A stretch of DNA of 64,000 nt. It comes from Hormiphora californensis. Taxonomy: Eukaryota; Animalia; Ctenophora. The notes beneath the pieces were generated by a model. That model was given only the letters and a program-made list of their open reading frames with translations, ran no database searches and was not told the origin of the DNA. The stretch spans positions 9,858,001 through 9,922,000 of the forward strand of contig CM035351.1 in assembly GCA_020137815.1 (NCBI GenBank), given 5' to 3'. The stretch's first letter is position 1. Every line of letters starts with the position of its first letter. The position numbers were made by a program, and so were the translations under genes. Of the stretch, positions 11,690 through 52,678 are shown in pieces.

Positions 11690-13400
11690 CAACATCTCGA
11701 AAAGCATGAAATTGCGTGCAGAATGGATCTACACTGCAGTAGTTAGACCGAACCTTGAATACGGGATAGAAATAACAAACACCGCACTACAAAACAAGAA
11801 AATAGCTAACAAACTGAGAAGCGTCCAAGGGAAGGCACTAAAAATGATAACTGGAGCACTAGCAACTACAGCAACGGCAGACCTAAACATTCTTACAGAC
11901 TATATTGACATAGCTGAACACCTAAAAGTGAACGTGGCAAAAACCATTACTAAACTAAGAAACGAAGGACAATGGACCAAAGAAAAACCGAAACACAACG
12001 GACACAAAAGTATTGACGATAACATAAGACGTTACATAGGCCACAAACAAATCGACACAGCCACACCGACGTCCGACACTCAACTTGGATACGGCCTTCA
12101 CCACAACCGTGCCAGACGACCCAAACGAGTACGCAAAAGAAGCTGAAAAAGAAATGGAGAGTGACACACCAATTCAATGCTACACAGACGGATCAAAAAA
12201 TGAAAAAGGAGAAACAGGCAGCGGAATATTTATAATAAAACAAAGGAAAGAAATTGTCAGAAACTCTAATAACCTACCGGACACATCGACAGTATTCCAA
12301 GCGGAAGTAATAGCCATCACGAAAGTAGCGAAAACAATGATAGAAAGTAAACAAGAACATGAAGAAATAAATATCTGGCTGGATAGCCAGGCAGCCATAA
12401 AAGCCCTAATGTTATATCATATCACTCCCGCTCCGCGCGACCATTTGCACGGTGAAATATGCACTCTGCTTCCACGGGAGCATGCAGATATAGGGGTAGC
12501 GGGATATAAGTAAGAACAGTGTCCCTCAGTGTTTTTACACCTTATTCACACACAAACACACAGAATATGACTGACAAGGTACCACACAACACATTTTACA
12601 CTCACTCTCCCTGCAGCGGGGGGAACTCAGGTTCTTCGTGCCAGCTGAGTTCTTCTAGCTCAGTCCCGTTGCCGTGGACCTGGTTGGCTGATGGTCCAGT
12701 GATTACGGTCAAATCACACCGGCTCTCTCCCCAATCTTGGGGAGTAAACTTTGCCAGAGACCTTGCCGAACTCAACTATGGCACCGAGCTCTTGCAGTGC
12801 GACTGGTCCCTGCTGGGATTTGGTTCGGCGGTCGATTGATGAGCGGTTGGTTGACGATTGATATCAGTCGTTGATCGATCGTTTGTCGGTCGGTCGTCGG
12901 GCTGAGTCTTAGTGGGGATCCCGGTTGAACTGATAATCTCACCCCAGCCAGTAACCTTGTTACACATGGCAACCCATGATTTGTAATCACCGAGGGCCTC
13001 TGCCTACTAGGCATGCCTGATGACCCTTCGGCTGTCTCCCATTTAATTATGGGGGTAAATTCTACGCCAGAGAACTAGCCTCCCTCAATTATGGCAACCC
13101 ATGATTTGTAATCACCCGGCAGCTGTAGCCTTTAAAACAGCCCTCCTGTCCAACATCCCATATTGGTCGGACGGAGGTTACCTTCTCTCGCAAAAATAGG
13201 GGTTATTCCCCTGGGGAACCTCTGCCCAAATTTTTGCCACATACTACCTTTGCAGCTCCTCCACTGCCCCGACCTAGATGAGCTACGATACAAGCTCGAC
13301 TACCAAGATATCATCAACAACATTCTCACTCCCAGCAACACACTGGATCTGCACAAATTCTCCAAATTAGTATACAGAAGTAACCTATTCGAATAAACCA
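11690..13400 (+). mobile_element. 3' part of an RNase H-containing LINE (I/R1/LOA group), interrupted by an LTR-like insert
   Basis: YTAVVRPNLEYG; RNase H motifs YTDGSK, TVFQAEVIAI, DSQAAIKAL; C-terminal HCPDLDELR at about 13260. Confidence 0.85.
12410..13241. mobile_element. Probable solo LTR
   Basis: Begins TGTTATATCAT, the same start as the LTR at 62181, exactly where the RNase H frame breaks; ends ...GCCACA. No TSD recovered. Confidence 0.45.
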
Positions 13401-14939
13401 TCCCCAACCATCCCGATCTGAAAGAAGTAGCAAACCGCAGGGCAAGAATCGCTACGGCCGGGGAATTCCACAAAACCACATCATAAGGGTCCCACTATTA
13501 AGGTAGGGCAGTTCTGGGCCATAACAAAGGGCCACCTCCGCCGTATGGCAAGTAATTACCCCGCAATAGTGCAACCCCTGGGAGCTGATAATTTGCCAAA
13601 TGCTCACCAGAAGTTTACATAAGCGTTTTCATGCTTATCTGTGCTTGCTAAGAAATTAGCTGTCCGGACCCCCAGGTTGCATGCTGATAAGTACTGCTAG
13701 CGGTTTTGACCAAAGACCTGAGGTGTGATAAGATATTTCAGCCGTCACCGATTAGATGGTGAACCCACGGTATTGTCATATCCGGCAACCCACCTACCTC
13801 TACAGCTCCCTGGAGCAGTAGTAACCAAAGACCAGTCTGTGAGACAGGTAAATTCCATCCATTGTCCTGACAATATAGGTATGTCAGTCTAATATTAGAT
13901 TCACTGTATCAAATACTCTTCTTGTGATGCCGGCGAAGGTTCGAGGGAAATGTTGAGCTTGCTCAACAAAATACCAGGACCCAAACCGGAACAACATCAA
14001 CATTATCCCTACGTGTGGGGGACGGTGGCGAAGAGTGATATTAATATAGGTTGTCTGCCGACCATTGTGGGGCAGTAAAGTGGGAGGAATGACGGGCGGT
14101 GCAAAACACACACACACACACACACTCACTCTCCCTCTTTCTCTCACTAATTACCCCCTTATCATGTTTTGTTGTTCACTATTTCCAAGAATTCCAATCT
14201 CCCTCTCTCGTATCTCTCTCTTTATCCCTCTCTTTATTCTATTGTTAAAACGTGCCAAAACTTGTTCCCTTGCGTGTGACGCTCCAGTTGCAGATTGGAG
14301 GCTGGCTCCAGTTTCTGGCGCCAGCCTCCAGTCTGCAACTGGCGCAAGCTGGGAGAGTCCCTGTGCGCGCCAAATCTTCGTTGACTAGCAGGGTTTTCGA
14401 TGTGAATTGCATGTAAAGTAGCGCGCGCGGCAGTGTCAGCAGTGTCAGCAGGGGCCTGCTTCATTGTAACTAACGTCAGTCGCAAAATCTCTAACTGGAC
14501 CCTAAGAGTTGCAGTAGTGTCTGTTAGTATTTTTGAGTGTGTTTTGCTTAGTTTGTGCTTTGTTTTGTCACATCTCTCTGTGTGTAATCACCCAATATTA
14601 TGATAGTTTTGCTTGTCATGTGTTTTCTCGCGGAATATATACTCAATAACGTCCTGCACGGCATGTGCAAGCGCTCCTATATCGCACTCGTTTCACTCGT
14701 GATGGTGAAGTTGGCACCGGTGAAGTATAAGTTTAAGACCTTCCAAGTCCAGGAAGTGTTGGTTTTTTATTGTGAAAAAGTTAAAACTGGAAATTTATAA
14801 AAACATAGAGAGCTCATAGGGCTCCGCCAACAGGGTAGAAAACCCGCGGTTAAAGGCGGCACCCTTAACACACACCTTTTTAAAGTCTATAGAAATTGTT
14901 TGTAGAAGGTAAATAGTAAAAACATGCAATTACACAGTC

Positions 14940-16450
14940 CATGAGAATAAATTGCTGTTGGAGGAGAGGATGATTTGGTGCGACTGTGCAACGTTTACAG
15001 GCCACCTTACAACGGTAAAGCAAGGTTTACTGAGGCTAACTTTCTTGATGAGTTCAATGATTACCTCTCTAACCTTTTGATGAAAAATGGAAGTCCATCG
15101 ATTATGGGTGATTTCAACTTTCAAGTACAAGACTTCAGGAACTTCTCCACAAAGAAACTCCTTAACCTTCTGGACTCGTTTGATTTTGTCCAGAATGTGC
15201 CGCTGTTGCCTACTCATCTTCAAGGAGGAACTCTGGATTTAGTTTTCTGTCAGCGTGTTATGGCCAGTAAGTTGGGGAACCTGAGGATATTTCCAGATGG
15301 TACGATGTCGGATCACTATCTGGTAATGGTGGATGTTAAGTTGGCTTCTGAAGGAAGATATGTTTCCCGAGAGAGGATGAGTGTCTACCATGATTTTAAG
15401 GCTGTAGATGTAGAGGTCTTCCGGAGTGGGCTGAGGGATATGTGTTTGGAAATTCCAGATGACGTAACACTGTTAAGGTGGTCTTGTATGATAATGTGTG
15501 GGTGAGTAGGTTTACTGTTTTGTATAACACTTGAGAACTACAGTATATATTGCAAGGCAATGTTAACTTGCAATCAGTGATCTGATGGGTATCTTCCGAT
15601 TCAAGGGGTGATGGGTCAGATATCAATGGGATCGTTCTCGGGTCCTTCCGTACTATGGTGTGAGTCGGGTGAAGAGTCTGGTGGTAAGTGAGTCCAAGTG
15701 AGTCTCAGTGCGTGTCAGTGAGTGTCCTCTCCGCTTCGTATCCTCCTTTAAGTATTGCACCGATTCTCCTCGGTAGACATAACAATTGGTTGTTATCTGA
15801 CGCATGTGTAATAGGAATTTTGCTTTACGTCAGGTGTCCTCACGTCTCTCGGTATCCATCCAGCGTAGGTAAACAATCTAGAATCCCCGGAAAGCTTGAC
15901 GTCAGGTGTCCTCACGTCTCTCGGTATCTATCCAGCGAAGGTAAACAATCTAGAATCCCCGGAAAGCTATCCAAGATGAAGTAATGAAATATGTGGATAT
16001 AACAACACCAGAACAGGCTTTGTATCTGTATGATAGAGCTTTGAAGGAGGCTGTAGATAGATTTGTCCCGACCAGACGGAGGAAATCGGTGAAGAACTTC
16101 AGGCCTTGGAGAGAGAGACAGGATGTTCGGGACACCCTGCGGGAGAGAAGAAAAGCGGAGAGGGCTTGGGAGAAGAATAAAACAGGACTAACGAAAGCAC
16201 GGTACATGGAACTCCAACGACAGTTTGAGAGGATTGACAAGGAGGCAAGAATGGAGTATGTAAAGAAGAAGCTTGAAGATGTGAAGGATGACCCTGCTGG
16301 ACTTCAGAAAATGTTGGCTCGACTACTGGGGAAGAAAGAGACTCTTCTACCGGGTGGACTGTCTGTCAAGAAACTAGCTGATAACTTTGCACAGTTTTTC
16401 TCTGGAAAGATTGATAAAATACGGTCTACTGTTAGTGACATTGACACCTA
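14940..16450 (+). mobile_element. L2-like LINE ORF2 fragment (APE and linker), split by a solo LTR
   Basis: VYRPP, MGDFNF, PTHLQGGTLDLV, SDHYLV, RPW, FAQFFSGKIDKIR. Frame DDVT|PEQ rejoins across the LTR. Confidence 0.9.
15471..16004 (-). mobile_element. Solo LTR with 4-bp TSD (ACAC), related to the LTR at 62181
   Basis: Termini TGTTAAGGTGG...GATATAACA; ACAC on both sides; shares GTGTGGGTGAGTA..GTTTACTG with 62738-62760; internal duplication of about 66 bp. Confidence 0.85.
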
Positions 16451-18030
16451 GTCCGTGCGAGATCGAGGTCGCACATAAGTGTCCGCTCCGCCCCCTAAAA
16501 AAGGGTCGTGTCTTTCAAGCCAAATTGCACGTGATCCACTGGACCGATTTGCATCCGGTTTGTCGCAAAAGACTATGAAGGCTTTAGGACTGTAACTCAC
16601 CTGGACAGTAACTCGAAAGTGAGTTATTGTCCGAAAATTGGCGTCGACATTTTTTTTTCTGGTGACTTTCTGTCCGTATTATTTTCGACTTTTTGCTAGG
16701 ACAAAAAGTCGATAGCTAGGACAAAATCTCGAAATTTAAACTCACCTAGGTGAGTTATGCGGACACTAACTCGAATTTTGTTTCGAGTTGGGGGACAGAA
16801 ACTCACTTGCTAAAACTACGAAAATGTCGAAAATTCTGGTGATATTTTCATTTTCCATGGCAGGTGAGTTTCTGTCCGGCCAATGAAATATGTTTCCAAA
16901 CAGAATTTTTGAGTTTTTTTGTTCTAGCTATCATTATTACAAGTGAAACAAGTTGTGTGGTTGACATAAATACACTGTAAAACCCATATCCCATCCCTTT
17001 CTATATCTCCCTTCATCTCTCTCTTTCCCTCTCTATCTCTAGCTCCCTTCCTCTCTCTTTCTCTCTCTCTCTTTCACTCTCTCACTCTCGCTCTCTCGGT
17101 CCACTACACGCACCACTCCCACATGGGGCCGTGAGGCCCCATGCGAGAGCAGGGTTAAATCCCCCGGACCCGGATCCTGTTGGATCTGAGGGCCCGGAGG
17201 GCCTGCGGAGTAAAGGTAGGGTAGGTAGAACAATGTACATACGGGTAAATTTAACAATGTACATATGGGTTAAGGAAAGGGGATGATTTTAAAAAGGGGG
17301 AAGTAAAGTGGGATTAAAGCTCATGGTGACGGAGCACAAGACCTCCTAAACTATCTGCAAAGAAGCCCAATCTGCTACAATGAATTCTAAGAAGAGACAA
17401 CTTATCAGGAACTGAAGAAGCAAACCGTCTGAATCTAAGGCAGCCTAAAACAAGCAGGAACGGGTTCGAGCGAAAAATAAAATAACACAAATGGATGATG
17501 ATTACATGTCGAGCCAGAGAGGACAGCCAGCCCGTTCCAGAGAAGCCAGCTGACTCCGTTCCAGAGAAGACAGCCGACCCCGTTCCAGAGAAGCCAGCTG
17601 ACCCCGTTCCAGAGAAGCCAGCTGACCCCGTTCCAGAAAAGTCAGCTGACCCCGATCCAGAGAAGCCAGCTGACCCCGTTCCAGAGAAGACAGCCACCCC
17701 GTTCCAGAGAAGACAGCTGACCCCGTTCCAGTAAGGACAGCTGACCCCGTTCCAGTAAAGACAGCTGACCCCGTTCCAGTAAAGACAGCTGACCCCGCTC
17801 CAGAAAAGACAGCCACCCCGTTCCAGAGAAGACAGCCACCCCGTTCCAGAGAGGACAGCTGACCCCGTTCCAGTAAGGACAGCTGACCCCGTTCCAGTAA
17901 AGACAGCTGACCCCGCTCCAGAAAGGACAGCTGACCCCGTTCCAGTAAAGACAGCTGACCCCGTTCCAGAGAGGACAGCCACCCCGCTCCAGAGAGGACG
18001 GCTGACCCCGCTCCAGTAAGGACAGCTGAC

Positions 18031-18080
<50 letters not shown>

Positions 18081-19222
18081 TTCCCTCTCTCCGTGCTGCT
18101 ATTCAGAAACCTAGAAAATCCAAAATCCGTCAACAGAGAAGATGATGAGGAGTCACAGCTAATATTATAGGATCGGACTGGACTCAGTAGAGAGAAGTCT
18201 TGAGTCGTAGCTGCATAGTGGGTATGGTGTCGATAAGGAGAAAGGATCCACAATCAGTAGGTCTTGCTGTGATAAATTGTCGAGGATACGTGGGTAGCTA
18301 GGCTGGTCGGGAACAGATCGGAGAGGAGAAAAACCACTGCAAGTGATGAACAGCTCTCGTTGTCTCTCCATCTCTCTTCCTCTCTCTTCGTCTCTCCATC
18401 TCTCTTCCTCTCTCTCTTTGAATGGTGTGATAGATTATCGAGTGAAGGATAGGTGAGTCACTGAGTAGGAGAGCAGCTGCAGTCTGCAGCTAGGCTGGTT
18501 GGGAACAGATTGGAGAGGAGATGTAGACCACTGCAGCAGGTGATGAACGATGACTCATTGGATGAGAGATCCGAGATCCATGACGTTCAAGGCGTTCGGG
18601 AATTCCACCCGCCTTAAGTCAAAGTAAGTCAATGACGGGAAGTGAGCCCCGGAGCTAGAGAGACAAAGAGAAGCAGAGCTCAACCAATGTATGAGTGAAC
18701 AACGAGAACTGAACTAGCCCGCCCTTTCTCCCCTCTCTCTCTGTCAGGATCTCTCTACAACTTTGCATCCCTCTCTCTGCCAACGACGCCGCCATGTCTT
18801 CCCGCCTTTTTCTCTCTGTACATGAAGTGAGTTCTAGTCCGGACAGAAAATCGAAATTCGCTAATTAAGCGGACAAAAACTCACATATTTTCCCGCCCTT
18901 TCCCTGTCACCCTTGTTCCCCCTCTCTACCGAAAGTGAGTTGTAGTCCGAATTTGTGAGTTTAGAGGGCGGACAAAAAGTCGAATTTCGACATTTTTAGC
19001 GGACAGAAACTCACCTTGACCCCCACAACTCGAACAGGTGAGTTAGTGTCCGCCCGGACTCTAACTCACCGTAAATAGTGCTAAACAGTGGGGCGGACAG
19101 AGAGTCACCTGATCCGGACTGTAACTCACCTAAATTCGACATTTTCAAAAGTGAGTTAAAGTCCGAAATTTTCGAGTTCGAGTTCGAGTTATCGTCCGTT
19201 CGAGTTTCTGTCCGGTACCCAC
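16450..19222. mobile_element. Large DNA element with GGAC(N)nACTCAC subterminal repeats at both ends; probably Mutator/foldback type
   Basis: Dense gtgagtt..gtcc / ggac..aactcac motifs at 16580-16880 and 18820-19215; truncates the L2 fragment; left TIR not seen. Confidence 0.5.
17515..18030 (+). repeat. 24-bp minisatellite
   Basis: Variants of CCAGAGAAGCCAGCTGACCCCGTT, about 21 copies. Confidence 0.9.
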
Positions 19223-19369
19223 TATAAATTGGTCCTAGTTTACTGGAAAATACCCGAGAAGTTTGTCTGTCAACAGGAAGTGGGTCAAAATTGACACTGA
19301 AGTCAAATCTATAATTTGGCTTCCGAGCCTTTTTGCACCTATATATATATATATATATTATATATATAT

Positions 19370-21050
19370 ACCTCGACCAAAACGCGGAGTTTTTACGTCA
19401 GCCGACCCGAAACCGGATTAAATTTGGGCACCCGCTGGTCTAAGGGTCTCCAAATACGTCAAAATATGTTTAAATTATCATTTGGGATCATGCAGACCTT
19501 TTAATTACATGTAATTACCCTTTAATTACATGAAATTACATTTTAATTACATGTAATTACTTCCAATTACATTCCAATTACTTCAGCACCTCGAGAGCTT
19601 TCGAACGCACCCTAGAACACCTTTATACTCCTTCTAATTGCCGAGTTCTGTATACCCCTTATTTTGACTGTTTTTCGCGTCCTACCCCTTATAGGTTTAG
19701 GTATGGCCATCACCACACCCCCTATACGTCGCGGGACCTCGAGACCTTTCCAACGAGCCATAGAACACCTCTCTACTACTTCAGGGGGCTTCAAAACTTT
19801 CACTCTAAAAATATCTATGGTTTTATGGTTTTATGGTTATGGTTACCTCGACCAAAACGCGGAGTTTTTACGTCAGCCGACCCGAAACCGGATTAAATTT
19901 TGCCACCCGCTGGTCTCAGGGCCTCCAAATATATGTCAAAATATGTCTGAATTGTCATTTGGGGTCATTTAGACCTTTTAATTACATGTAATTACCCTTT
20001 AATTACATGTAATTACATTTTAATTACATGTAATTACTTCCAATTACATTCCAATTACATTCAGCACCTCGAGAGCTTTCGAACGCACCCTAGAACACCT
20101 TTCTACTCCTTCTAATTGCCGAGTTCTGTATACCCCTTATTTTGACTGTTTTTCGCGTCCTACCCCTTATAGGTTTGGGTATGGCCATCGCCACACCCGC
20201 TATACGTCGCGGGACCTCGAGACCTTTCCAACGAGCCATAGAACACCTCTCTACTACTTCAGGGGGCTTCAAAACTTTCACTCTAAAAATATCTATGGTT
20301 ATGGTTTTATGGTTATCAGCCGACCCGAAACCGGATTAAATTTGGCCACCCGCTGGTCTCAGGGCCTCCAAATATGTCAAAATATGTTTAAATTTTCATT
20401 TCGGGTCATTTAGACCTTTTAATTACATGTAATTACCCTTTAATTACATGTAATTACATTTTAATTACATGTAATTACTTCCAATTACATTCCAATTACT
20501 TTAGCACCTCGAGAGCTTTCGAACGCACCCTAGAACACCTTTCTACTCCTTCTAATTGCCGAGTTCTGTATACCCCTTATTTTGACTGTTTTTCGCGTCC
20601 TACCCCTTATAGGTTTGGGTATGGTCATCGCCGCACCCCCTATACGTCGCGGGACCTCGAGACCTTTCCAACGAACCATAGAACACCTCTCTACTACTTC
20701 AGGGGGCTTCAAAACTTTCACTCTAAAAATATCTATGGTTATGGTTTTATGGTTATGGTTTATGGTTTATGGTTTTTTTTCATCTGGTATTAAGGGCCTG
20801 TCGGCTCGGCCCCGTTGTTTTAGTTTTAGGGGGGATGTTTTAGGGGGGATGGATTGAGTTTGGGTTATATTCGGGTCGGGGGGCCTTGCCAGGCCCCGAA
20901 TGGTTTTATGGTTTTATGGTTTTTTTTCATCTGGTATTAAGGGCCTGTCGGCTCGGCCCCGTTGTTTTAGTTTTAGGGGGGATGTTTTAGGGGGGATGGG
21001 TTGAGTTTGGGTTATATTCGGGTCGGGGGGCCTTACCAGGCCCCGAATAT
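19370..21050. repeat. Tandem array of 440-480-bp units (3 copies) plus a duplication of about 145 bp
   Basis: Near-identical ORFs recur at 19612, 20090 and 20530; AATTACAT and TTATGG sub-arrays. Confidence 0.85.
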
Positions 21051-21429
21051 ATATGTAAACGTGTATAAAATCGACCAAACTTGATATAGACGCCAATATC
21101 TCAGCAACCATTCTACATACAGGAGTTTGTAAATATTTGTGAGAAGCTCCTTCGTCTGGTCTTGAATATGAACTAAAATTTACAAGTTTTTATACTAAGA
21201 TGGGGCTTCCATGACCAATTATATGAGCAGCAAACTAAAAATTATCCAGTATACCAGTGACATTCTACACCATTTCAACACCTTTCATACAGTAGGGCAA
21301 TGGATCTCTCTTCTCTCTCTTTCTCCCAGGGGGATGGTCGTGGGAACCTCACCCGCACTAAATTCAGTTATCCCAGGAAAGAAAGGCACTAATTAGCCAA
21401 CTGAGAATGGCATTCAAGATAAAACTGTG

Positions 21430-21935
21430 CAGGAGTGATTCATAAGACCCATTTCTACTATTTTAGATGATAATAGGACATAATTAATTTTATATGCTAA
21501 CCTGAAGAATACCTTTAAGAACTGGATGGTACAGCATTGGCTCAAATGTAACGAGAGTAAGACTGAGTTTGTTCTCCTTGGAAAATCAAGCTCTCTTGAG
21601 AAGCTGGTATTTGATCCGGAAATAAGGTTTGGTGACACAGTGTTGCAGCCTATGGAATGCAGAGGAAGGACAGGGAAGACCCAAGGAGTACTTCTGGATG
21701 AGCATCTTACCTTGGAGAGGCAGGTGAACAATGTTAAGAAACAATGTGGACTGCAACTCAAGAACCTATGGCAACTCAACAAGTGTTTGGACAATAGTAC
21801 ACGGATTCTTCTTGTGAAGCAATTGGTCATATCAAAGATAGACTACTGCAATATCCTCTACTTTGGACTCCCAAAAAGGATTCTTAACAATCTTCAAAAG
21901 GTTCTAAACTCATGCGTACGGTTCATTTGTTGGCT
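21430..21935 (+). mobile_element. L2-like RT C-terminal fragment
   Basis: WMVQHWLKCNESKTEFVLLG, GVLLDEHLT, LVISKIDYCNILYFGLP...LQKVLNSCVRFI. Confidence 0.9.
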
Positions 21936-22347
21936 TTGTTCCCTTTAGTTAATAAAGTCTGTAATTTTTCATATCATCAGTTTTTTTTGAGCGTAATGTG
22001 ACCAGTTATCTTATTAGTATATCCTGAACTAGGATTGAGTTTTTTCCCAAAGTTTGTAAGAATATAAGGACTTTTTCGCGTGAGGTATACCGCTCTGAAG
22101 CTCGTCAGTGTCAGGTACAGTTTTACTGATCTGGCCCTGTCGTGTCTGTGGCGGTATACAAAACTTAATATCATTATTATTATTATTAATTTAGACAAAG
22201 TTGTTTTTTCGAGTCACAGGATCTTTAAAAACAACATGGAACGGACAACCCTAAGCTCTACCATGGCCCAATTAAGTTGACACGAGTTATGCCGTTCAAA
22301 ATACACAGGAGCTTCTTTAACAGTACCCAAAGAGAGATTCATCTTAC

Positions 22348-22491
22348 CTGCATATCATATAATCGCACATGGCGGTTATCAAATGGCACAGCCAGTGTGT
22401 GATGGGTATTTTCCGATACAGCTAGTCGATTGACACTCGCATCACAATGGATTGTTGTTATTGGTGTTCTCATATTCCTCAAATCCCAAAC
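22348..22491 (-). CDS. WDR37: WDR37-like exon (WD40)
   Basis: atcag acceptor and gtaaga donor; 144 bp, phase 0 to 0. Encodes VWDLRNMRTPITTIHCDASVNRLAVSENTHHTLAVPFDNRHVRLYDMQ. Confidence 0.93.
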
Positions 22492-23115
22492 CTGATTGAT
22501 GGGAGTTTTTGGTAGTTATTTTTTGGAAAACATTTACAACCAGTGCCCATTACTATTATCATATTTTGGGGCTCTGAATTCAGAGAGGGAGGATTCTGTG
22601 TCTCGAAAGTAACCTCTCTGGGAAAATGGTTCAGTGAAGTGAAACTCGGTAGTCGGGACGAGCTATCTCCGTCCATGGCCAACACCTCTCCAACATGATA
22701 CCTCCACGCTCGGTCCCTCCTGGAAACGTACTGGGTGACTGTACGGCTAAGCTCGGGCGGGCGAAGGGAACAGTTTGGACCCCTGGGATCAGCAACATCC
22801 AGTCAATTCGTGAACTGATCCCAAATCCTTCCTGTATTTCAACCAACTCTTTAGAGTGGGTTAACTAAGAGTTTTTACCTTTTGGTGGAGTCTATATAGT
22901 TTTTGAGTAGAACCGTTTGTGCCATTTGCGCCTTTTCGTCGCATGAACGAATCTTTAAATGGATTCTCGAATAATTTACATAATAGAGGCCCCTACAGCA
23001 TCTTCTCACATGTTTAAACGGCTCTAACTAGATAACTACAAAAGATAGAAACTATATCAAAGTTGAGACTGCACATTTGGACGATTCTCTGTCCACACAA
23101 GAAGTTTCAAAGCCC

Positions 23116-24056
23116 CAGCCCTTCATATTAGGTTGTCCAGTAAAGATTTTCGTTTGGCTTTTATAGGAAAATGGTTTGAGATAAAGCAAAATGGACTTCA
23201 CCACCGATTTTCTCACGCGATTTTGGATCGGAATAGCATGCCTGATATCGGTATATTGGCTGTTCTCGGTTCCCACCAGGCTATTTTCTCTACCCCACTC
23301 TTGTTACTGCTGTTTGGGGTTACCAAAGTTTTTTAAACGCTGCCCTAAGAAAACTGGTACAGTCTTTTTAGCTCCTATGGTGCTTAATCGATAGCAAATC
23401 GTCTGAGGATAAAATATATATGCGATTTGGGTCTCTACGCGTTCGCTAGTAACCACTAGAACAGTGAATGTAACATAAAAAGCGAAAAATATACATAAAA
23501 ACTGGCCCGTTTTGGGGTACATGTTCGAAAACGCCAATTATTCACTTTAAAAGTCAACCAATCAAATAATTGGCTTTACTATGCCTTAGAACTTACTTAG
23601 AACTATCTTTTACTGTAAAGTTTTTGATTATAAGCCAATCCTGGTGAGACCCGGAAGTGAAAGTTTCTCATTTTTATCAAACTTTTTTGGATGCCCATTG
23701 CTTAGTGTCAAATTAAAGATAAGATGATTTATTACATCTTGAACGGTAGGCAATTGTCCAATAAACAAGTTTGATGCAACAAGACATCACTCCGGTACCA
23801 TTTTCAAGAAGTACAGCAGCTTTAGTACTAAAACTCGAAAATCGCGAAGTAACCCCGTACAGCAGCAACAAGAGTGGGGTAGAGAAAATAGCCTGGTGGG
23901 AACCGAGAACAGCCAAATACCGATATCAGGCATGATATTCCGATCCAAAATCGCTTGAGAAAAAGCGTGGTGAAATCCATTTTGCTCTATCTCAAGACAG
24001 TTTCCTGATAAAAGCGAAACGAAAATCTTTACTGGACAACCTAATATAAGGGCTGT
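23116..24056. mobile_element. Mariner-like TIR element with arms of about 195 bp and a probable nested insert
   Basis: ATATTAGGTTGTCCAGTAAAG and its reverse complement at 24027-24047. Confidence 0.7.
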
Positions 24057-24207
24057 ATTCAAGTCCTGCTTTTTGTCACTTCAAAACGTCTTTTTGACTG
24101 TTTTTCGGTCATAACACTTTTGGATATGCATTGGTTAACTTAAAACCGGTTTCAAGATGATCCAAACACTCCTTCCGTGGGCACGACGCCGCACCAATAG
24201 TGGTCCT

Positions 24208-24251
24208 GACTTTCAGGCTTTTCAGCACTGCTTGAAATAAATTAATTTGAG
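24208..24251 (+). other. Diverged spliced-leader-like sequence at the LINE 5' end
   Basis: GACTTTCAGGCTTTTCAGCACTGCTTGAAATAAATTAATTTGAG aligns without gaps to 47399-47442. It has 7/44 mismatches to the ctenophore SL as I recall it and is followed by GT. Confidence 0.7.
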
Positions 24252-24347
24252 GTCTATGACCTCGAATTAAAAGACTTCCCTAGCTATGGCTTTTTAGCAA
24301 GGGTTCCTGCATGACATCTATATATCCCTGCAACTCCAACCACCAAC

Positions 24348-26155
24348 ATGGATCGACACTTCCTTGAATCTTTATCCAACCTATCTGCAGCTCGATTGGA
24401 GTGTTTCTGAACATATAAAAAAGGAGCTCTGCAAGAGGAAGAAGGACACCACTAACACTGACCCTACGCAATTCATCACCTATGAGCCATTGGATCCATC
24501 GCATCCTATTCTCGCTCAGCGAATAATAGGATGCCGGCCCGTTGAGAGCAAGAACTCACGTGCGCGCGATATAAAGCACGTTTTCAGCAGATCGCGCGTG
24601 ATAGACCGTTTTTGGAGACCTTTTTAGCTGACCTAGCACTACTCAAAGGTCAATTATGGCCTCATTTCGCATCGTGATGAATCGGCGGGTATTTACCCAT
24701 ACTCACAAGGCCATGACGATTCCCCCAGTACCCGCAGATTGTCCCAGGACCGAGTAGGAGCTTGCAGCCAGGTCTTTAAAGAATTGCTCATGTTTAGCGT
24801 CAATTTTGACCCACTATTCCTCAAATGCTGATACTCGCGGGTATTTTCCGTGAAACTAGAGACAATTGTCTGCCAGGAGCAACAAACGAGATGCAAATCG
24901 GTTGAGTAGTTCCTTGCAGCCAGGTCTTTGAAAAAGTTTGCTCTAAAATCAATAACGCGCCGGAGGCCTAGATGTGAGATCGATCTCGGTGCTGTGAGCC
25001 ACACTTTCTAGACGAGACACAGAGGGAGTTACTGAGGGGGGAAGTCAGTCAGTTCAGCGCTGGGGGTCGCATCACTAACACCTGGATCACCCTTAGTGAT
25101 CGGAGCTACGGCTGGGGAAACGCCAACTTGAGTCCTTTGGATATGACTCTGTTTCCCTGTATCAAGAGAGCACTGGAGCAGTTCAGCAGGTAGTGACCAA
25201 CGCCCTGGCCTGGAATCTTGCCTGGTTACATACTATCCAAGCGGTCAGGGTGTTGGGTACCACAACGATTTTGAAAAAGCCCTGGATGCGAACTTGAGGG
25301 GTCACATCACATACATAAAAGGGAGAGAAAGAGGGAAAGAAAAAGAGAGGGATCACATCACAAGGTAGCTCGCTTAGCTACCTGGTCTATCACTAGGACT
25401 TTGTGGGGGAGAGAGAGAGAGAGACAGAAAGATAGAGATAGCAGATAGAGAGATACATAGCGACAGACAGACAGAGTGAGGCAGAGAGGAAAAGATAGAA
25501 ACAGGTCCCTCGATTTGCGATCGGTACGATCGCCCCAGTTTTGCTAGTACTGACTAAACAGGAGTTCTCCCAACATAACAAAAATATCTCAGTGATGGGT
25601 GGGTCGATTTTGAGAGGCAAAAACGCAAAATACTCAGAAAGCTAATCTCTACTACCTACAACAAACTTGTCCAATTCTGATTCGGTCCAGTCTCACTTTA
25701 AGGGATACAGCGCCGACCTACGGGAAGCTGCAGATTATTCTTTGTTACCAGTGGATGGCTCCATGTATACCATGAAAGCTGGGTGCCAGGAAGCCTTTAA
25801 GCACAGAGTACTAAAGTGTAATAAGATCAGGGGATCTCTTGGAAAATTTGCTCTGTCCTTCAGGAGGGTAGACTCTGCAACAACTACTGATCTGGTACCA
25901 CCATCCCAACATCCTACTCAACCTGAGACAGAACATAGGTTAACCCCTCTCCCTCCCCAGGAAAGGGAGGTCACTGTCCTGATAGGGACAAGTATGTCAA
26001 AGTGGATTCCATCCGGTCCTGGGTTTATAAACATGTCAACCTCGGGTGCTAGACTCATCTCCCCGCACCCAGACTGGAAAGGAGCTACTGCACTGGATCT
26101 GCTCCGTGACCTTAAGAACCGTGAGCCAGAATTGTCTATCGGCTACCTGATAGTA
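24348..26155 (+). pseudogene. LINE ORF1 remnant: AlkB-family 2OG-Fe(II) dioxygenase domain followed by SGNH/GDSL esterase
   Basis: AlkB motifs: YEPHFLDETQRELL, SCLVTYYPSGQGVGYHNDFE (HxD at 25261-25269), LATWSITRTLW, DGSMYTMKAGCQEAFKHRV, KFALSFRR. SGNH motifs: VLIGTSM and STSGAR. Contains stops, frameshifts and insertions. Confidence 0.8.
25288..25547 (+). mobile_element. 3' half of the same Helitron family inside the AlkB ORF
   Basis: Matches 29165-29548, including the hairpin and CTAG. Confidence 0.75.
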
Positions 26156-27629
26156 CTGCCCCTTTTTTTTAGAATGAAGTATTTGCATTTTTTAAGTTTC
26201 GAGAAAATCGACTTTAAAGTTTTTTAGAGGGTTTTTCGGAACTAAAATTGTCATAGAAGCCCAAATAGTACGTCAAACGATTTATGACTTATACCACAAG
26301 AATCCTGAAGGAATTCTGCAGGACTTCCAATTATCAGCTATCATCAAATTTGTCTCAAATTGATGTCAGGCATCAAAATTGATGCCTTACTCTGTTGGTT
26401 ACTTCACTTATATTACAGTTTTGAAAATACTTCCGTTGCTAGACTGATATCGACTGAAGCATAATTTTTCGTGGTAGATACTTCAGTAATTACTTCACTC
26501 AAAAAAATACTTCATCATAATAGCAACAAAAGCACCTAAAAAGTACTTCACTTGCATATACTTCAGTAATTACTTCATTCCTAAAAATACTTCTTCAGAA
26601 CTGTATTCAAAATGCCTAAAAGTAACTTAATCGAACAAAAGTGTACATGTGCTTCAAAATCGCAATCTTACTTCAATATTTTGGATAAAATCACAAACGA
26701 AGTTAATTTTCATTTAACACGCAGTGAAGTATAAAATGTGTTAGAATTCTTGCTAGTCTTGAAAGTAACTCCAGAGCAGCAGCTGCAGACAAACAGACGC
26801 ACAGACAAACAGACGCACAAATTACAACTGCAGCAGCCTGCAGCAGCCTGCAGCAGCATAAAGAGATGGGCCGCCCGCCCTTCGGGCGGAATGTTAAAAT
26901 CATGGTGCTGATAAATTGAGCGAAAACAGAAAAACGCTATGGCAACCCTCAAACTAAGACGAACCTGCAGATAAAATCTGGAAGATTAATCTGTTCCGGT
27001 ACGAGTCATACTTTGAAATTGGTTGAGTTCGGCTTGTAATATCAGAGTGAAACATGGAGATTGGAGATTCAAGAATTTTCTTCCGACCTCTACACAGGTC
27101 CGTGTTCATAAAATATGACAGACATACAAACAGATCACAGACATACAAACAGATCACAGACAGACACACAGACAGACACACAGGCCAGTTCATTACATGT
27201 TTTAACAATCGATTGGCTGATAACCAGTCACGTGACCTGAATAATGAGCTCGGATTGGTTGTTTATTTGGTCCGGTCGGTTGCTGAGAGATAGAGAAAGG
27301 GTCTGACAGAGAGATAATATCGATGAGAGGGAACGGGAGTGAGATTGTCTCCATTCGGGTTATTCACGAAGAGGAGTATTTGTCTAGGAGTGTGGGAATG
27401 TAAGGACAGAACAGTTAGATGACAATATATTTTGTTAATATTTGGATGATTTGTATCCGTATTCTTTAATTTTTTACAAACATTTCAAATTCCCGTGAGT
27501 GTGATAGTTCAGTGACATGGGAGACAGTGGGAGGCAAAGTGACAGGGGTTACAATGGGAGGCAAAGTGACAGGGGTTACAATTGGAGATAAGGTGACAGG
27601 GGTGACAAAGGGATATAAGGTGACAGGCC

Positions 27630-28942
27630 CTCACTCACCCCCCTTCCCCAGGTCATCCTGCCTCCTAACTCACCCCCTTCCCCAGGTCATCCTGCCTCCT
27701 AACTCACCCCCCTTCCCCAGGTCATCCTGCCTCCTAACTCACCCCCCTTCCCTAGGTCATCCTGACCCCTAACTCACCCCCCTTCCCTAGGTCATCCTGC
27801 CTCCTAACTCACCCCCTTCCCCAGGTCATCCTGCCTCCTAACTCACCCCCTTCCCCAGGTTATCCTGACCCCTAACTCACCCCCCTTCCCCAGGTCATCC
27901 TGCCTCCTAACTCACCCCCTTCCCCAGGTCATCCTGCCTCCTAACTCACCCCCTTCCCCAGGTCATCCTGCCTCGTAACTCACCCCCCTTCCCCAGGTTA
28001 TCCTGACCCCTAACTCACCCCCCTTCCCCAGGTCATCCTGCCTCCTAACTCACCCCACTTCCTTAGGTTATCCTGACCCCTAACTCACCCCCTTCCCCAG
28101 GTCATCCTGCCTCCTAACTCACCCCCTTCCCTAGGTTATCCTGACCCCTAACTCACCCCCTTCCCTAGGTCATCCTGCCTCCTAACTCACCTCCCTTCCC
28201 TAGGTTATCCTGCCTCCTAACTCACCCCCCTTCCCCAGGTCATCCTGCCTCCTAACTCACCCCCTTCCCTAGGTTATCCTGCCTCCTAACTCACCCCCTT
28301 CCCTAGGTTATCCTGACCCCTAACTCACCCCCTTCCCCAGGTCATCCTGCCTCCTAACTCACCCCCCTTCCCTAGGTTATCCTGACCCCTAACTCACCCC
28401 CTTCCCTAGGTTATCCTGCCTCCTAACTCACCCCCTTCCCCAGGTCATCCTGCCTCCTAACTCACCCCCTTCCCCAGGTCATCCTGCCTCCTAACTCACC
28501 CCCCTTCCCCAGGTCATCCTGCCTCCTAACTCACCCCCCTTCCCTAGGTCATCCTGACCCCTAACTCACCCCCCTTCCCTAGGTCATCCTGCCTCCTAAC
28601 TCACCCCCTTCCCCAGGTCATCCTGCCTCCTAACTCACCCCCTTCCCCAGGTTATCCTGACCCCTAACTCACCCCCCTTCCCCAGGTCATCCTGCCTCCT
28701 AACTCACCCCCTTCCCCAGGTCATCCTGCCTCCTAACTCACCCCCTTCCCCAGGTCATCCTGCCTCGTAACTCACCCCCCTTCCCCAGGTTATCCTGACC
28801 CCTAACTCACCCCCCTTCCCCAGGTCATCCTGCCTCCTAACTCACCCCACTTCCTTAGGTTATCCTGACCCCTAACTCACCCCCTTCCCCAGGTCATCCT
28901 GCCTCCTAACTCACCCCCTTCCCTAGGTTATCCTGACCCCTA
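27630..28942. repeat. 32-33-bp C-rich minisatellite, about 40 copies
   Basis: Variants of CCTAACTCACCCCCTTCCCCAGGTCATCCTGCCT. Confidence 0.95.
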
Positions 28943-28953
28943 GCCTTTCGGAA

Positions 28954-29402
28954 TCTAACTATATCTAATGCAAATTTGGGTGGAAATGTGACACCTTATC
29001 GTCAGTGTGACGACGTGATCCGTCACTGTGACGACGTGATCCGTCACTGTGACGACGTGATCCGTCACTGTGACGACGTGATCCGTCACTGTGACGACGT
29101 GATACGTCACTGTGACGACGTGATTCGTAGGTATCACGTATCACAAGTGCTAGAGAACTGCTTGCGAACTAAAGGGGTCACTTCACATACATAAAAGGGA
29201 GAGAAAGAGAGAGAGGAAAAAGAGAGGGATCACATCACATAGCATATATCATAAGCGAGAGAGAGAGTGAAGGAGAGACAGTGAGACAGAGAGGCCGCAG
29301 ACTGCAGAACGAGACAGAGAGAGACGGAGAGACAATCAGTGAGATAGACAGAGAGATAGAGAGTAAGACAGCGAGAAAAAAGATAGAAACAGAGAGAGAG
29401 AG

Positions 29403-29494
<92 letters not shown>

Positions 29495-29548
29495 TATGGA
29501 AACAGATTCCTCGATTAGCGATCGGTACGATCGCCCCAGTTTTGCTAG
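28954..29548 (+). mobile_element. Non-autonomous Helitron
   Basis: A|TC start, hairpin GCGATCGgtaCGATCGC near the 3' end, CTAG|T end; internal 21-bp tandem repeat and (GA)n. Confidence 0.85.
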
Positions 29549-30019
29549 TGATGTAAATTTGAAACCAAACGCTAGGGCAATAACTTATAAAACCTTATGA
29601 GGTCAGTGTTTGACAACACTGTTTGTGGTGTCTCTCTCTCTTTGTCTCAGAGTGACACTCTTACATAGAGATAATCCCAGAATCATGATCACCCCGGCCC
29701 CCAGACATCTCTTCTCCACTTGTTGAGTTACCTAACAACTGGTTGTGTTGTGTCGTTACGACAGTACGGTACTGGAACATAATGCTACCTTTGAATGTGG
29801 GGTTCTAAGTTCGAAGAATGAGATTGGAGTGACGTAGTTGTGACGGTGAGGATGAGTAATTCGAGATGTGAACGATAATTATAATTACTCAGAATAGAAT
29901 AATTATTATAGGGATCGCCTCCGTTCGACCTTCATCATGATGATGCTGCAGCAAAGAACAAATCTTGGAAATTACTTCATTTGGCCGGACTTGTGTTATA
30001 AATGGCACATATTATAATA

Positions 30020-30443
30020 AACAAGAATTATTGCATTATGTATTCATAATGCGGTATTTCCCTGCCCTCCGTCGACAGGATCAGTATCACACTATCAGTA
30101 TCACAATATCAAGGCTTGGTCACAATGTGAGATGCATGCGTCCTGTATGTATGCAGTTACACAGCTGTTTTACTCTACCCTCACCCCTTCAGCAACAGTG
30201 TTGTGAGCGCCGCGCACAGCTTTGAAAAATAAGCGTCCTGACATCATATTTCATCAAAACAGTTATTTGATTTTATGAAGGAGCAGTTACTATGCTGCTA
30301 CCGTGACACACGCGATTTTGACCACGCTCGAGTTACTATTTCAAATCCGAGATTTCTAAACCCTTTATGATCTTTTTAGCACACGTGCTAAAACGATCAT
30401 CCGGGTGGATGCCCTTCGGGCATCCACCCGGGCAGGGAAAAAA
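30020..30443 (+). mobile_element. Helentron/HINE-like element
   Basis: 5' ACAAGAATTATT, palindrome GCATTATG/CATAATGC, sub-TIR TTCCCTGCCC; 3' GC hairpin plus GGGCAGGGAAAAAA. Confidence 0.75.
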
Positions 30444-31269
30444 TGAAGTATTCTTAAGTTATGAAGTATTTTTTCTGGATGCGACAAGAAGCATTTGAAT
30501 TCCACAGATTTATGAAGCATTTTCAAATTGAAGTAAATGAAGTGAAGTATCTTCTGATTTGAAAATACTTCAAACAAAATCTGCAACTGATTTATGAAGC
30601 ATTTTCAAATTGAAGTAAATGAAGTGAAGTATCTTCTGAGTGGACAATACTTCAAACAAAATCTGCAGCTGATTGAAGTATTTCAATAGAATTTTTTAAA
30701 TGAAGCAAACAACTGAAGCAAATTTTTCTGCGGTTATTACTTCTATGGTAGAAAAGTTTAACGAAGCAGTATTTATTTCCGAATTATATTAGCGAAGCAA
30801 TTGCCATTTGCTTCACTTTTCTGCAGTTTTTCAAAAATAAAAGTACTTCACAAAAAACACTTCACTCTATTTTTTGAAGATTGAGACACGAGACTTAGCC
30901 CATCTTGTAGATCTTTTTCTCCTGATCAAGATGGTATAAATAACTCAAAATCGCCAAAATTGCAAATACTTCATTCTAAAAAAAAGGGGCAGAGTAGCGT
31001 TTGGAAGGTAAATAACACCCAGCCAACCGACGTGGGCAGGCCGAGAACCATGTCATCCTATGCTACAATAACTACGGATAGTAGCACCAATATAGCACGG
31101 TCCCAGCAGCCGAGCTCCAATGCAGCACGTGAGCCAGCCCCATTTGATGAGCAGGCTTTTTTCGAAAGACTCTTGGGCGATGGACGCGAGAATGGACGCG
31201 AAAATGAGAGAAATGCTAGACGTGAGACTAGAGCCGAGACGAACGTGGAGGGAACGTTAGGGCCTGTTT

Positions 31270-34085
31270 CGCCTACGAGCAAGCTGTTACTGCTTAATGC
31301 AAGGAGTCCAGCAGGTGATACAGGTTGGAAACTCGGAGACTGTGTTACGCAAGAGAAAACTCCCAAAGTAGCCATTGCAGTAACTGAGACTTGGTTTGAG
31401 GGTTATCATTCTGATGCTCAGGTTCAGATACCAGGGTATGACGTATATAATAGAAGTGATAGAGAGAACCGAGTCGGCGGAGGCTGTGCCTTATATGTTC
31501 AATGTTCGCTGGCTGTTTCTGACAGTATATATTTTGCGAGTGGGAATAACAATATGTGTGTATGTTGATCAAATAAACACTATTTATGCTGCTGTGTATC
31601 GCTCCGAGTCAAGTGTGTTAGACTTTCAAAAGCTGATGGACAATTTGCAGACTTTTATAGATAAACACAGTGATGGATGATTATCAGAGGTCGTAATTTC
31701 TGGGGATTTTAATCTTCCTCTTTTTCAGTGGTCCGATGGTTCGTCTGTCCCGGTTGATCAGCCTAACTACAATGTTGTTGATTTCATAGACACAAACTTT
31801 CTATCCCAAGTTGTTGAGGGCCCTACAAGAGGCAACAACACGCTAGACCTTGTGTTTACCAACCGTCCAGAATATTTCAGCGATATTTCTATTACGGATG
31901 GGGGTATCTCGGACCATTTCTGGGTATCATGTGAACTATCTTTCAACCCTCTCGGTCCTAAAAGTTTATTTCTTCCCAGTACACTTGAGGGTTATCGTCA
32001 ATTGGATCTTCAGTCGGCTGACTTCACTAGTATTGATGCGGAACTAGCGGCTACTGATTGGGATCGAATGTTGACGGAATGTGAAGAACTGGGAGACGAG
32101 GATGGTTCCCTTTTTGTGGAGGCCATGCGTGACAAAGTGTTCAAAGTTGTAAAGTCACACTGTCGTCTGTCGGTTGAAGAAAATCAGAAAAGAGTTTGTG
32201 GACAAAGAACTGAAACACTTAACTAGCAGGAGACGTAAATTGGTTAAACGAGAGGACGATTCAAACAAATCGAAATCACAGATGGACTGTATTATTGGAA
32301 GGATAAAGGACCATCTGATATCAAGGGACAAGAAGTCAGAGAGGAAGGCTGTGAGCTGTCGGCGTAATTAAAGAAAACCCGAAGTTCTTTTATTCACACG
32401 TCAAGAGGAAATCAAAGGTTAAATCTTCAGTTGCACCCCTTGAGCGTGAAGATGGTTCACTAACTGTGGATCCTCAAGATAATGCTGGACTACTCCAACA
32501 CCAGTTTTCCAGTGTTTTTAGTGATCCTTCCGCTATCGACCCCGCAGAGGCGGCTGGTAACGTGGAGGACCTTGGTGAGATCCTGACAAGTTTGGAGTTT
32601 TCACAGGAATGTATCCAGACTGGCTTGAAGGAACTTAAACCATTCTCAGCATCCCCTCCTGACTGCATTCCTTCTTTTGTTCTGAAACAGTGCAGCAGTA
32701 GCCTGGCATACCCGATTTGTTGTGGAACAGGTCATTTGAAGACGGATCTGTCCCTATAGTTGCTTAAAGCAACAGTTCATAACACCGTTATTCAAGAAGG
32801 GGGCTAAATCGAAACCTGTGAATTATCGCCCAGTGTCTATAACAAGTCACCTGTCTAAAGTGTTTGAGCGGCTGGTGAGGAAACGGATCAGTGACTACTT
32901 GGACGAGATGGAGTTGCAGAGTGACACACAGCATGGTTTTAGGAAGGGGCGCAGTACCATGACACAAACCCATGTTGACATCATCCTATCTGAACTATGC
33001 GGTGATCAGGAAGTCGATGCTATCTACTTAGATTTTAGTAAAGCATTTGATTCCGTGGATATCAATGTTCTGCTAGCTAAATTGAGGTGATATGGTATTG
33101 GAGGTCAACTCCTTCAGTGGATCAGTGCGTGGATCCTGGGCAGGAATCAGTGTGTAATGGTGGATGGAGTGAGGTCGCCCTGGGTTGAGGTACTTAGTGG
33201 GGTTGCCCAGGGTAGTGTGCTCGGACCACTTCTTTTCCTCATATATATTCTTGACCTGGAGACAGTACTAGACGGTAGCATGTGTCTAACTTTTGCTGAC
33301 GATACTAAGTTTGTAAAAGCTATTTCGGATATGAATAGCCAGGCGTGCCTACAGAACGATCTTTTAAGAGTGGCAGAATGGGCAAAGAAGAACAATATGA
33401 AGTTACATGAGGACAAATTTCAGCTCTTGAGCTATAGTCTGAATAAGTCTGCTATCCTCAGACAGTTTCCTTTCGCAGCTGAAGTGTTTTCATACACTAC
33501 AAGCTCAGGTGTGCAGTTGACCCCCGAACCTGATGTTCGTGATCTGGGTGTCCAGATGTCTTCAGATGGGTCATGGACGAGGCACATTTCTATCATAGTG
33601 CGGAAGGCTTCCCTCTTGAGTGACTGGATATTCAGCGTTTTTCGGAACCGTTCTCCGGAGGTTATGGTACAGCTTTTCAAGTCCTTGGTCAGGCCTATTC
33701 TTGAGTACTGTTGCCTAGTCTGGAACCCTTCCAAGGCTGGTGATATCAAGGCTATTGAGAATGTCCAACGTTGTTTCACCAGACGTCTTGATGGTATGCA
33801 GGGTCATGACTATTGGGATAGACTGAAATTGCTCAATCTTATGTCCCTTCAGCGTCGGAGACAGCGCTACATTCTGATTCATGTGTGGAAGACGATTCAT
33901 GGTTTTGTACCTAACTCTGCCAACCTAGTATTTCAACAGCACGCTAGACTGGGTATGCGGATAGTCCCACCACCTTACCCCTATAGAGCAGAAACGAAAC
34001 GAGCTAATCAATTTCACTGCTCATTTGGTCCAAGAGCAGCTCATTTATGGAACACTCTACCAGCTAAGGCCAAATTTTCGACGTC
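31270..34085 (+). pseudogene. LINE ORF2 remnant (AP endonuclease + reverse transcriptase), CR1-like
   Basis: APE motifs: VTETWF, DRENRVGGG, GDFNLP, PTRGNNTLDL, SDH. RT motifs: NYRPVSITS, QHGFRKGRS, YLDFSKAFDSV, GVAQGSVLGPLLF, FADDTK, VRPILEY...WNP. Frameshifts and stops present. Confidence 0.95.
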
Positions 34086-35174
34086 AAGGCATCGCAATCA
34101 ATAAAGCCGCCACCGGACAGCTCCTATACCTTCTCTCCCACGAAACGACAAAACCACGAACACTCCTTGATCGGGGACAACATCGAGGAGGAGCCTCGAC
34201 ATTTGCTCCCTCTGTATGGAGGGAAGACACCAGCTTCAGGCCTGCCCTCTGAACAGGCCCACATCTCCGCTCCGGATCCTGCGGCGTTTCAACCTGTGTG
34301 CCTGCCGGGAGTTATCGAGGACCGTAAACCTGGATCCGAATACGCACATCGAGAGGACCATAGTGGACCAGTTCCTATGCGACCACCATCTTCCTCGCCA
34401 ACACGTCCAGCAGCAGCGCCCGACTGAGGACAACACCATACTCGATCTGCAACTAATTTGGCAGGTCTCGTATCCCATACCCAATTAGTTGCAGATACCG
34501 AATAATTTCACCGATTCGTCTCCCGTATCCCATACACAATTAGTTGCAGATACCGAATTACTTCACCGATTCGTCTCTCGTATCCCATACAGAGATAGAG
34601 AGATCACGTGAGAGAAACCCTATTTCTGGCTGCTAAAATCTATTTCTGGCTGCTAAATCTATTTCTGGCTGCTTGCAGCCAGAAATAGGTCTAGCAGCCA
34701 GAAATAGCAGCCAGAAATAGACTGTCGAGCAACTGTGCACCTGCCGTGAATTTTTCAAAACGTGAACCCCGGTCGGATTTCTTGAACACGTATTTTTGAC
34801 TTTAGGACGATATATCTGACGATTGGTAAGACTTGGAACGTCAATCTTGCAACCAAAATGTTCGCCAGACAATTCTCTAGAACACTGGTTTTTGTTAGAA
34901 CCATGTTGACCAATTTTTCGATGAGTTTTGATTAATTTGACGGAACCCGGTCATGACCAGTAATCGCAAGTCACGCAAAGACAGTGGGACACTACTACCA
35001 TCTTTCGATTCCAATGAATGTTCATAAATTTTCAGTGGTGATTAGGCTTGCTTTTGCGTGGGACGTGGGTGCGGTACCTTTTTTAAATGTGCATATTTCT
35101 AGCTTAGAAGATATCTCAAAATAATCTTATGAAACGAGTAGAGAAGACACCGAAGGCATTACAGTGAGAGAGAA

Positions 35175-35630
35175 CAGCCCCGATTTTGATGAAACTTGGT
35201 CAGAATAGTGTTTGGTGTCTAATTAGAAACGTCCTAGAACAAAATGAATAGAACCATCTTTCTAAGCGTGAAATTCTGCATCGATTTTAGTGGCTGTAAA
35301 CCTTTCTATGACGTTTTTGATCTGTGATGTCTATGTAACGAAAAAAACCTAAAATACCTTACCACATGAAGCATACCCGTTTGGTTTTTGGGGATAACTT
35401 CTGAACCTTACGACTACGTCATAGAAAGGTTTACAGCCACTATAATCGATGCAGAATTTCACGCCGAGAAAGATGAGTCTATTTATTTTGTTCTAGGACG
35501 TTCCTGAAACCCATAAAAGCCAAAAAAACCTAGAAAAACCTAAATTTAGGATTTGAGCACTTAAAAAAATTTTGACTTCTAATTAGACACCAAAGACCAT
35601 TTTGATTTAGTTTCATCAAAATCGGGGCTA
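35175..35630. mobile_element. Inverted-repeat element
   Basis: AGCCCCGATTTTGATGAAAC and its reverse complement, plus inner arms 35230-35312 / 35415-35502. Confidence 0.6.
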
Positions 35631-35833
35631 TTTTTACTTTAAAACCTTGACATTTAGTCCAAAACTTCAAAATTTTCGGGGTTCGCTTAGAGGTACCGGG
35701 CTACCCTAAAATGAGGCTTAATCACCGCCTTTAATGTCTTTTAATGTCCTTTAATGTCTCAGGGACATTAAAGTCGGACGTGTATGTTTAGGACATGGAT
35801 ATTAAATTCATGCGCCCCCTAATTTTCACTAAC

Positions 35834-36045
35834 CTTTGCGGTACAATCGTCGCTGGCGCTTATCACACAATCTGTGTGGCTAGTGAAGACTGCACAGGAA
35901 ACTGTCGCCGTATGGCCCTGGTACACATTAACTGAATGAATAGAAGTCCGGAAATCCCATACTCGGAATGTAGTATCCTTGCTGCAGGTGACAATAAGCG
36001 CTTGGGAGGGATGCACCGCTGTGTGTGTCAATTCTTCTTCGTGAC
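35834..36045 (-). CDS. WDR37: WDR37-like exon (WD40)
   Basis: cgcag acceptor and gttagt donor; phase 1 to 0. Encodes [70 protein letters not shown]. Confidence 0.94.
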
Positions 36046-52615: not shown

Positions 52616-52678
52616 CTGAAAATTCATGACAATAGTAAGGTGTTTTTAAGAGCTGCGTGTTGTGTAGAAAACCTTTTG

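Follow-up and report, generated by a model that had tools for sequence, protein, structure and literature searches.

How did a sequence resembling a trans-spliced leader (SL) come to stand at the head of a broken retroelement inside a ctenophore intron? The question is raised by a 64,000-nt stretch of the Hormiphora californensis genome (GCA_020137815.1, contig CM035351.1, positions 9,858,001 to 9,922,000; here "the window"), in which a motif starting at 24208 resembles the SL and lies just ahead of a decayed open reading frame. The explanation that we favor, with a probability of roughly 0.6, is that the motif is a decayed ctenophore SL exon heading a dead retroelement with an AlkB-esterase ORF1, likely a LINE of the CR1 type, and that it was placed there by trans-splicing followed by reverse transcription. 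Four observations stand behind this: the motif matches the SL, it lies 96 nt ahead of ORF1, a second species has the same junction, and three unrelated LINEs carry near-perfect SLs. The features of the locus are:

24114..24211, no strand assigned: high-copy repeat, ending on the first letters of the 24208 motif
~24211..24251, plus strand: spliced-leader relic, SL positions 4/5-44, with six substitutions (four A>G, one T>G, one C>T)
24211-24218 with 24230-24237, plus strand: predicted 8-bp stem within the relic that the canonical SL lacks
24242..24270, plus strand: predicted 13-bp hairpin, in which the final 10 letters of the SL and GTC are paired with element bases 24258-24270, covering the AG|GT junction
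24252..24347, plus strand: element 5′ UTR, 96 nt; the same segment lies behind the SL end in organism B
24348..26155, plus strand: broken ORF1 encoding an AlkB-like 2OG-Fe(II) oxygenase and a GDSL esterase, matching protein P0001
24348-24401, 24403-24486, 24996-25187, 25150-25287, and 25655-26155, plus strand: the ORF1 pieces
24483..24994, no strand assigned: 512-bp high-copy insertion interrupting ORF1; the organism B contig lacks it
26156..30992, no strand assigned: nested DNA transposon, bounded by terminal inverted repeats and flanked by a 4-bp target duplication, as read from the sequence against P0001
31236..34086, plus strand: broken APE-RT ORF2, presumably CR1-like, in the same orientation as the AlkB ORF1

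The preliminary description had reported an ungapped match to a motif at 47399, ending TTTGAG|GT shortly before the ORF1 ATG at 24348, and this was borne out: 24208-24251 and 47399-47442 agree at 36/44 positions, while the next-best site in the window, scanning both strands, reaches 26/44, and the maximum over 200 shuffled windows is 28/44. The SL match stops precisely at the exon end. Compared with the ctenophore SL as printed in PMC8527503, 24208-24251 is identical at 37/44 positions, and 24209-24251 matches the exon of an SL RNA gene found on metagenome contig L017 (below) at 36/43. The earlier count of seven differences, four of them A>G, holds against the published SL, but one of the seven, a G>C, lies at the junction with the upstream repeat. 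In contigs of three DNA runs covering 24000-25300 (agreement 0.41-0.45), the common sequence of this repeat starts near 24114 and stops at 24211, where unrelated flanks take over; its summed depth in organism A exceeds 300,000, with diverse loose ends behind 24211. Since the common sequence extends to 24211, positions 24208-24210 (perhaps also 24211) belong to the repeat, a later arrival that covers the first letters of the motif at 24208. The G>C difference is therefore a junction effect, and the relic itself has six changes in 40-41 nt, at SL positions 9, 10, 18, 23, 27, and 31. There is a GC-rich hairpin near the end of the repeat, which may on that account be a rolling-circle (Helitron-like) element. 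Neither head, 24208 or 47399, matched an SL, ribozyme, or snRNA family in Rfam; we weighed an HDV-like ribozyme at the heads by visual inspection and set it aside, the stems being simple local hairpins.

ATG 24348 is the true ORF1 start, with codons 1-18 being 89% identical to the intact relative P0001, and the five pieces of ORF1 match that protein at 72-93% identity. P0001 has a 2OG-FeII_Oxy_2 and a Lipase_GDSL_2 domain; the latter makes this an esterase-type ORF1, as expected of a CR1-group LINE (the type is described for CR1 and L2 in PMC4120745). The combination of AlkB with a GDSL esterase in ORF1 occurs in several ctenophore protein clusters, of 61-103 members. AlkB capture is known from orchid Gypsy elements (PMC9289625); a literature search returned no paper on the AlkB and GDSL-esterase pair in a LINE.

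The window copy is dead, its ORF1 being broken by frameshifts, the 512-bp insertion, a further insertion after 25287, and the DNA transposon. Behind the transposon ORF1 picks up again for three codons (30997-31005) before the match to P0001 is lost, with about 130 ORF1 codons missing. The RT relatives of the ORF2 at 31236-34086, which we assign to the CR1 clade provisionally, come from Bolinopsis and Mnemiopsis. This ORF2 likely belongs to the AlkB ORF1, which would make the element a LINE. A weak search for long fusions of P0001 with an APE-RT found 0 among 7995 candidates, and none of the best 120 of 1328 RT relatives was tied to P0001 or P0002. The statement that a LINE with a different ORF1 carries the same leader is thus upheld as to the SL relic before the AlkB ORF1, but as to the LINE only at the level of likely, no intact relative having been found that joins ORF1 to ORF2. 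A short ORF with a CCHC-like knuckle (34087-34485) lies directly behind ORF2 and is probably part of another element; no 3′ end of the CR1-like element was found.

Other copies were sought in sequence data from two organisms, here A and B. In organism A (two samples), junction and body depths are alike, at about 440-790, and the window copy appears to be single-locus, depth being a rough guide. The preliminary description had looked to other full-length copies for presence or absence of the motif: in organism B, a contig spanning 24235-24369 has 17 or more letters of the SL 3′ end running straight into the 5′ UTR and ATG, differing from the window at 16 other letters and one gap. By this comparison of sequences, the SL head is a family feature in two species. 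The organism B contig has a depth of 405, close to the 375 of the element body; six other listed contigs of the same run have 18-99. It is clipped at SL position 27, where the window has a stem-forming G and which is the sole SL position comparable between the species; because of the clipping there, this G is probably private to the window copy. Of the ORF1 differences from organism B that were listed, 26 in number, 16 fall at third codon positions (P 0.003), so the two lineages diverged while still coding.

Some related heads agree with the window head just behind the SL and part from it further on, after 24263 in organism B and after 24269 and 24290 in organism A. The two in organism A have depths of 2829 and 1568, about four times that of the AlkB locus; they are possibly sister families or short non-autonomous elements.

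The window contains a second SL-headed element, and both lie antisense within introns of the same host gene:

47399..47442, plus strand: near-perfect SL, 43/44 to the published SL, heading a second broken LINE
47596-48908 (ORF1 pieces) and 49467-50138 (APE pieces), plus strand: the second LINE
11450..55392, minus strand: host WD40 gene, with exons near 55132-55392, 36650-37054, 35822-36124, 22491, and 11529

The 47399 head matches the SL gene exon of L017 at 42/43 positions. Another LINE relic, the third in the window, lies at 14951-21936 and is uninformative, having given neither an ORF1 match nor an SL match. The host gene, which we take to be WDR37-like, is about 44 kb long, and its introns are full of nested LINEs, foldback elements (23116-24055, 44035-46404, and 52676-53811), and tandem repeats (27640-28940 and 50150-51870). 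There is also an RNase H-bearing retroelement fragment at 11664-12510, and a fragment at 39591-40133, without a Pfam match, that is presumably the GIY-YIG endonuclease of a Penelope-like element.

Further examples came from metagenome contigs, scanned with the 3′ half of the SL and a required GT behind it. The 20 loci recovered comprise 11 mRNA-like contigs starting with the SL, six that match the pattern only and were set aside as chance (L007-L010, L012, and L013), one SL RNA gene, and two LINEs; scans of viral contigs and prokaryote genomes found nothing. GT is forced by the scan pattern, so the loci give no GT frequency, but the occurrence of SL|GT in 11 of 20 as ordinary mRNA-like contigs means that a GT behind the SL is no sign of a splice donor.

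Of the two LINEs, L011 (4950 nt, minus strand) is intact, with an ORF1 of 473 aa, an APE-RT of 1008 aa, and an (ATT)n tail, and it begins with 43/43 SL after just 5 nt of flank. At the amino-acid level it is 55-65% identical to the third LINE relic of the window (14951-21936). In L016, 150 nt of flank precede the SL, of which the last 35 letters are present; a cut on the SL 5′ side is as expected from incomplete cDNA. Their ORF2s are only 24-28% identical to the CR1-like type, and downstream of the SL none of the four heads (24208, 47399, L011, and L016) has clear similarity to another (local scores 12-17). The suggestion that SL acquisition is recurrent among LINEs of this genome therefore gains from SL heads on four unrelated retroelements, but two of the four are known from metagenome contigs and perhaps belong to other genomes.

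The SL RNA gene on L017 provides a standard of comparison. It is a true ctenophore-type SL RNA gene, with an SL exon, a GTAAG donor, a structured intron, and a U-rich Sm-like site, and it shares a 778-bp tandem unit with 5S rRNA (L017:692-830, 263-381, and 1041-1159). At the first G of the published cDNA leader, L017 has C and the 47399 head has G; the first G of the published leader may come from the cap.

At all four heads (4/4), the homology sets in close to the 5′ end of the SL, or right at it, and ends precisely where the exon does. Reverse-transcribed trans-spliced RNA would leave just such a trace on unrelated retroelements: an exon-only match, cut where the exon ends. The two window heads are leader exons rather than insertions into SL genes, since neither the L017 intron (P 0.63 and 0.44) nor the L017 upstream DNA (P 0.89 and 0.51) matches them, bearing in mind that this metagenome contig is perhaps from another species; from 24252 onward the sequence is a 5′ UTR leading to ORF1, unlike the L017 intron, and the features of an SL RNA gene are absent. 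In the sequence of events that we propose, element RNA would be trans-spliced with the host SL and the spliced RNA reverse-transcribed to its 5′ end, leaving the leader exon in DNA. Active lineages would refresh their leader from host SL RNA at each cycle, with which the near-perfect leaders on the intact L011 and on the decayed 47399 element fit; the source RNA may be either a read-through RNA spliced at the head or the transcript of a master copy that has an acceptor upstream. The six changes of the 24208 copy would then mostly be decay. The element's own first bases are predicted to fold back on the SL end.

Private decay is favored by the difference at position 27, by the copy being dead and apparently single-locus, and by the A>G and C>T drift of its body. 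In addition, a weak check gave no sign of a minor SL variant, 0/5 RNA contigs from run X22 (organism A) being at least 95% alike. Six changes in 40 nt are nevertheless a high number for it, with P 0.017, 0.08, and 0.42 at assumed rates of 5%, 7.5%, and 13%, respectively. Other observations count against the trans-splicing reading. Contigs of the RNA-like run X22 cover SL bins only, with none on the element. About 85 nt behind the SL of L016, a 13-letter stretch resembles the L017 SL RNA intron (P 0.006, uncorrected, in one of four heads).

The predicted folds are also difficult to accommodate. Three of the relic's substitutions create G-C pairs of the 8-bp stem; this stem-building has P 0.007 when the observed types of change are scattered randomly and P 0.001 when the changes themselves are random, both being post hoc. 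The 13-bp hairpin has a z of -4.6 for 24240-24320 and was equaled in stability in 13/5000 shuffles. It buries the AG that re-splicing would need, which counts against re-splicing at the relic. So does the GAG itself, which is unusual as an acceptor. Neither the 13-bp hairpin nor the stem-building substitutions are explained by the trans-splicing reading; tentatively, the fold-back arm could be a new kind of feature.

These folds are the main attraction of an alternative in which trans-splicing supplied the SL a single time and the element has since inherited it, hard-wired, as an internal promoter or translation leader, with the fold-back arm hiding AG|GT and the substitutions selected for structure. 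All 13 pairs of the hairpin (13/13) are kept in organism B despite three changed letters, in one contig and with a chance of about 1/8 to 1/27, and at 47399 a weaker 8-bp stem (47442-47449/47464-47471) likewise covers the GT (146/5000 shuffles); no notable fold is seen at the L011 and L016 heads (z 0.69 and 0.26), which speaks against an inherited structure. In organism B the head is as deep as the body, so that copies with an SL head appear to be the rule; a fixed leader accounts for this as well as trans-splicing does. There are precedents of a sort, in that SL relics have been proposed as promoters in Symbiodinium (PMC5585692) and 5′ hairpins mark C. elegans mRNAs that are not trans-spliced (PMC9984361). 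But the G at SL position 27 is absent in organism B, and a near-perfect host SL has been kept on the three other heads, so that a one-time capture seems to us possible but rather doubtful. It is less easy still to see the SL as mere flank, through insertion of the elements just behind SL genes or scattered SL copies. Targets would be abundant, with 718 SL copies in one ctenophore genome (PMC8527503), and SLACS, CRE, and NeSL are likewise non-LTR elements lying directly behind SL sequence; these, however, insert in SL genes and use an RLE endonuclease (PMC4640811), while the ORF2s in the window, L011, and L016 are of the APE type. SL-gene upstream DNA was found at none of 24208, 47399, and L016 (P 0.08 for L016), the 19 letters behind the L011 tail differ from the SL intron, and the pairing of the element arm with the SL end implies that the two were transcribed together. 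Target-site preference is thus improbable as the origin of these heads.

The A>G bias had raised the question of editing, by which ADAR would have altered the leader before reverse transcription. Four of the six changes are A>G (P 0.004-0.03, depending on the assumed transition rate), and two of these replace an A opposite a C in the stem register. The canonical SL segment, by contrast, has no predicted fold (0 kcal/mol), and the element body drifts in the same direction: compared with organism B it has 11 C>T and six A>G vs. three T>C and two G>A (35 listed sites, changes not polarized), making C>T the commonest difference. The excess of A>G in the SL (4/16 A) over the body (6/~63) has P 0.11. 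Editing is accordingly a most improbable source of the changes, and the earlier conjecture is not supported. The A>G changes at 24216 and 24225 turn both TTTCAA words of the SL into acceptor-like TTTCAG (P 0.05); selection for such words was considered and rejected, since whatever lies upstream of an acceptor in use is not passed on.

The step from leader to LINE is already published for another phylum. In parasitic flatworms, SL fragments occur at 597 LINE/LTR loci, and the proposed explanation is that retrotransposon RNA was trans-spliced and then integrated (Calvelo et al. 2025, PMC12582326); as described there, and as in the ctenophore heads, a partial leader without other SL RNA features is found at retrotransposons. 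The ctenophore case differs in that single elements are resolved, with leaders of full or near-full length and a predicted fold-back arm on the SL end. Dinoflagellate retrogenes also carry SL relicts (Song et al. 2017, PMC5585692, citing Slamovits and Keeling 2008), where, as in the window, a decayed SL upstream of an ORF marks a retroposed trans-spliced RNA; the carriers there are host genes, often with tandem relics, whereas here they are retrotransposons, with tandem relics in 0/4 heads. In Hydra, TE transcripts receive the host SL, in about 30% of reads; the available text of that study (PMC12220107) concerns RNA and describes no SL-headed genomic copies, while the ctenophore evidence is at the DNA level only. 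For H. californensis itself the same 44-nt leader is reported in 718 genomic copies, and the available text (PMC8527503) describes neither a link to LINE 5′ ends nor an SL RNA gene in the 5S repeat. A literature search found no report of SL-headed LINEs in ctenophores; supplements of PMC8527503, PMC12220107, and PMC12582326, Repbase, and subscription papers lay outside it and may hold one.

It is conceivable, though we would put it forward as speculation, that ctenophore CR1-type LINEs have domesticated the host SL as a 5′ module. The antisense arm would clamp the SL 3′ end and the splice junction, switching the RNA between a spliceosome substrate and a protected, host-mimicking mRNA, and LINE heads would make up a large share of the hundreds of SL copies in ctenophore genomes that lack an explanation.

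If LINEs do take their 5′ end from host SL RNA, the promoter or ribozyme that usually defines that end may be dispensable. Part of the 718 genomic SL copies would be explained, copies that confound gene annotation; for separating true ctenophore SL genes from relics, the SL RNA gene in the 5S repeat provides a reference. The leader would, in addition, serve as a built-in clock, each copy starting from a known sequence.
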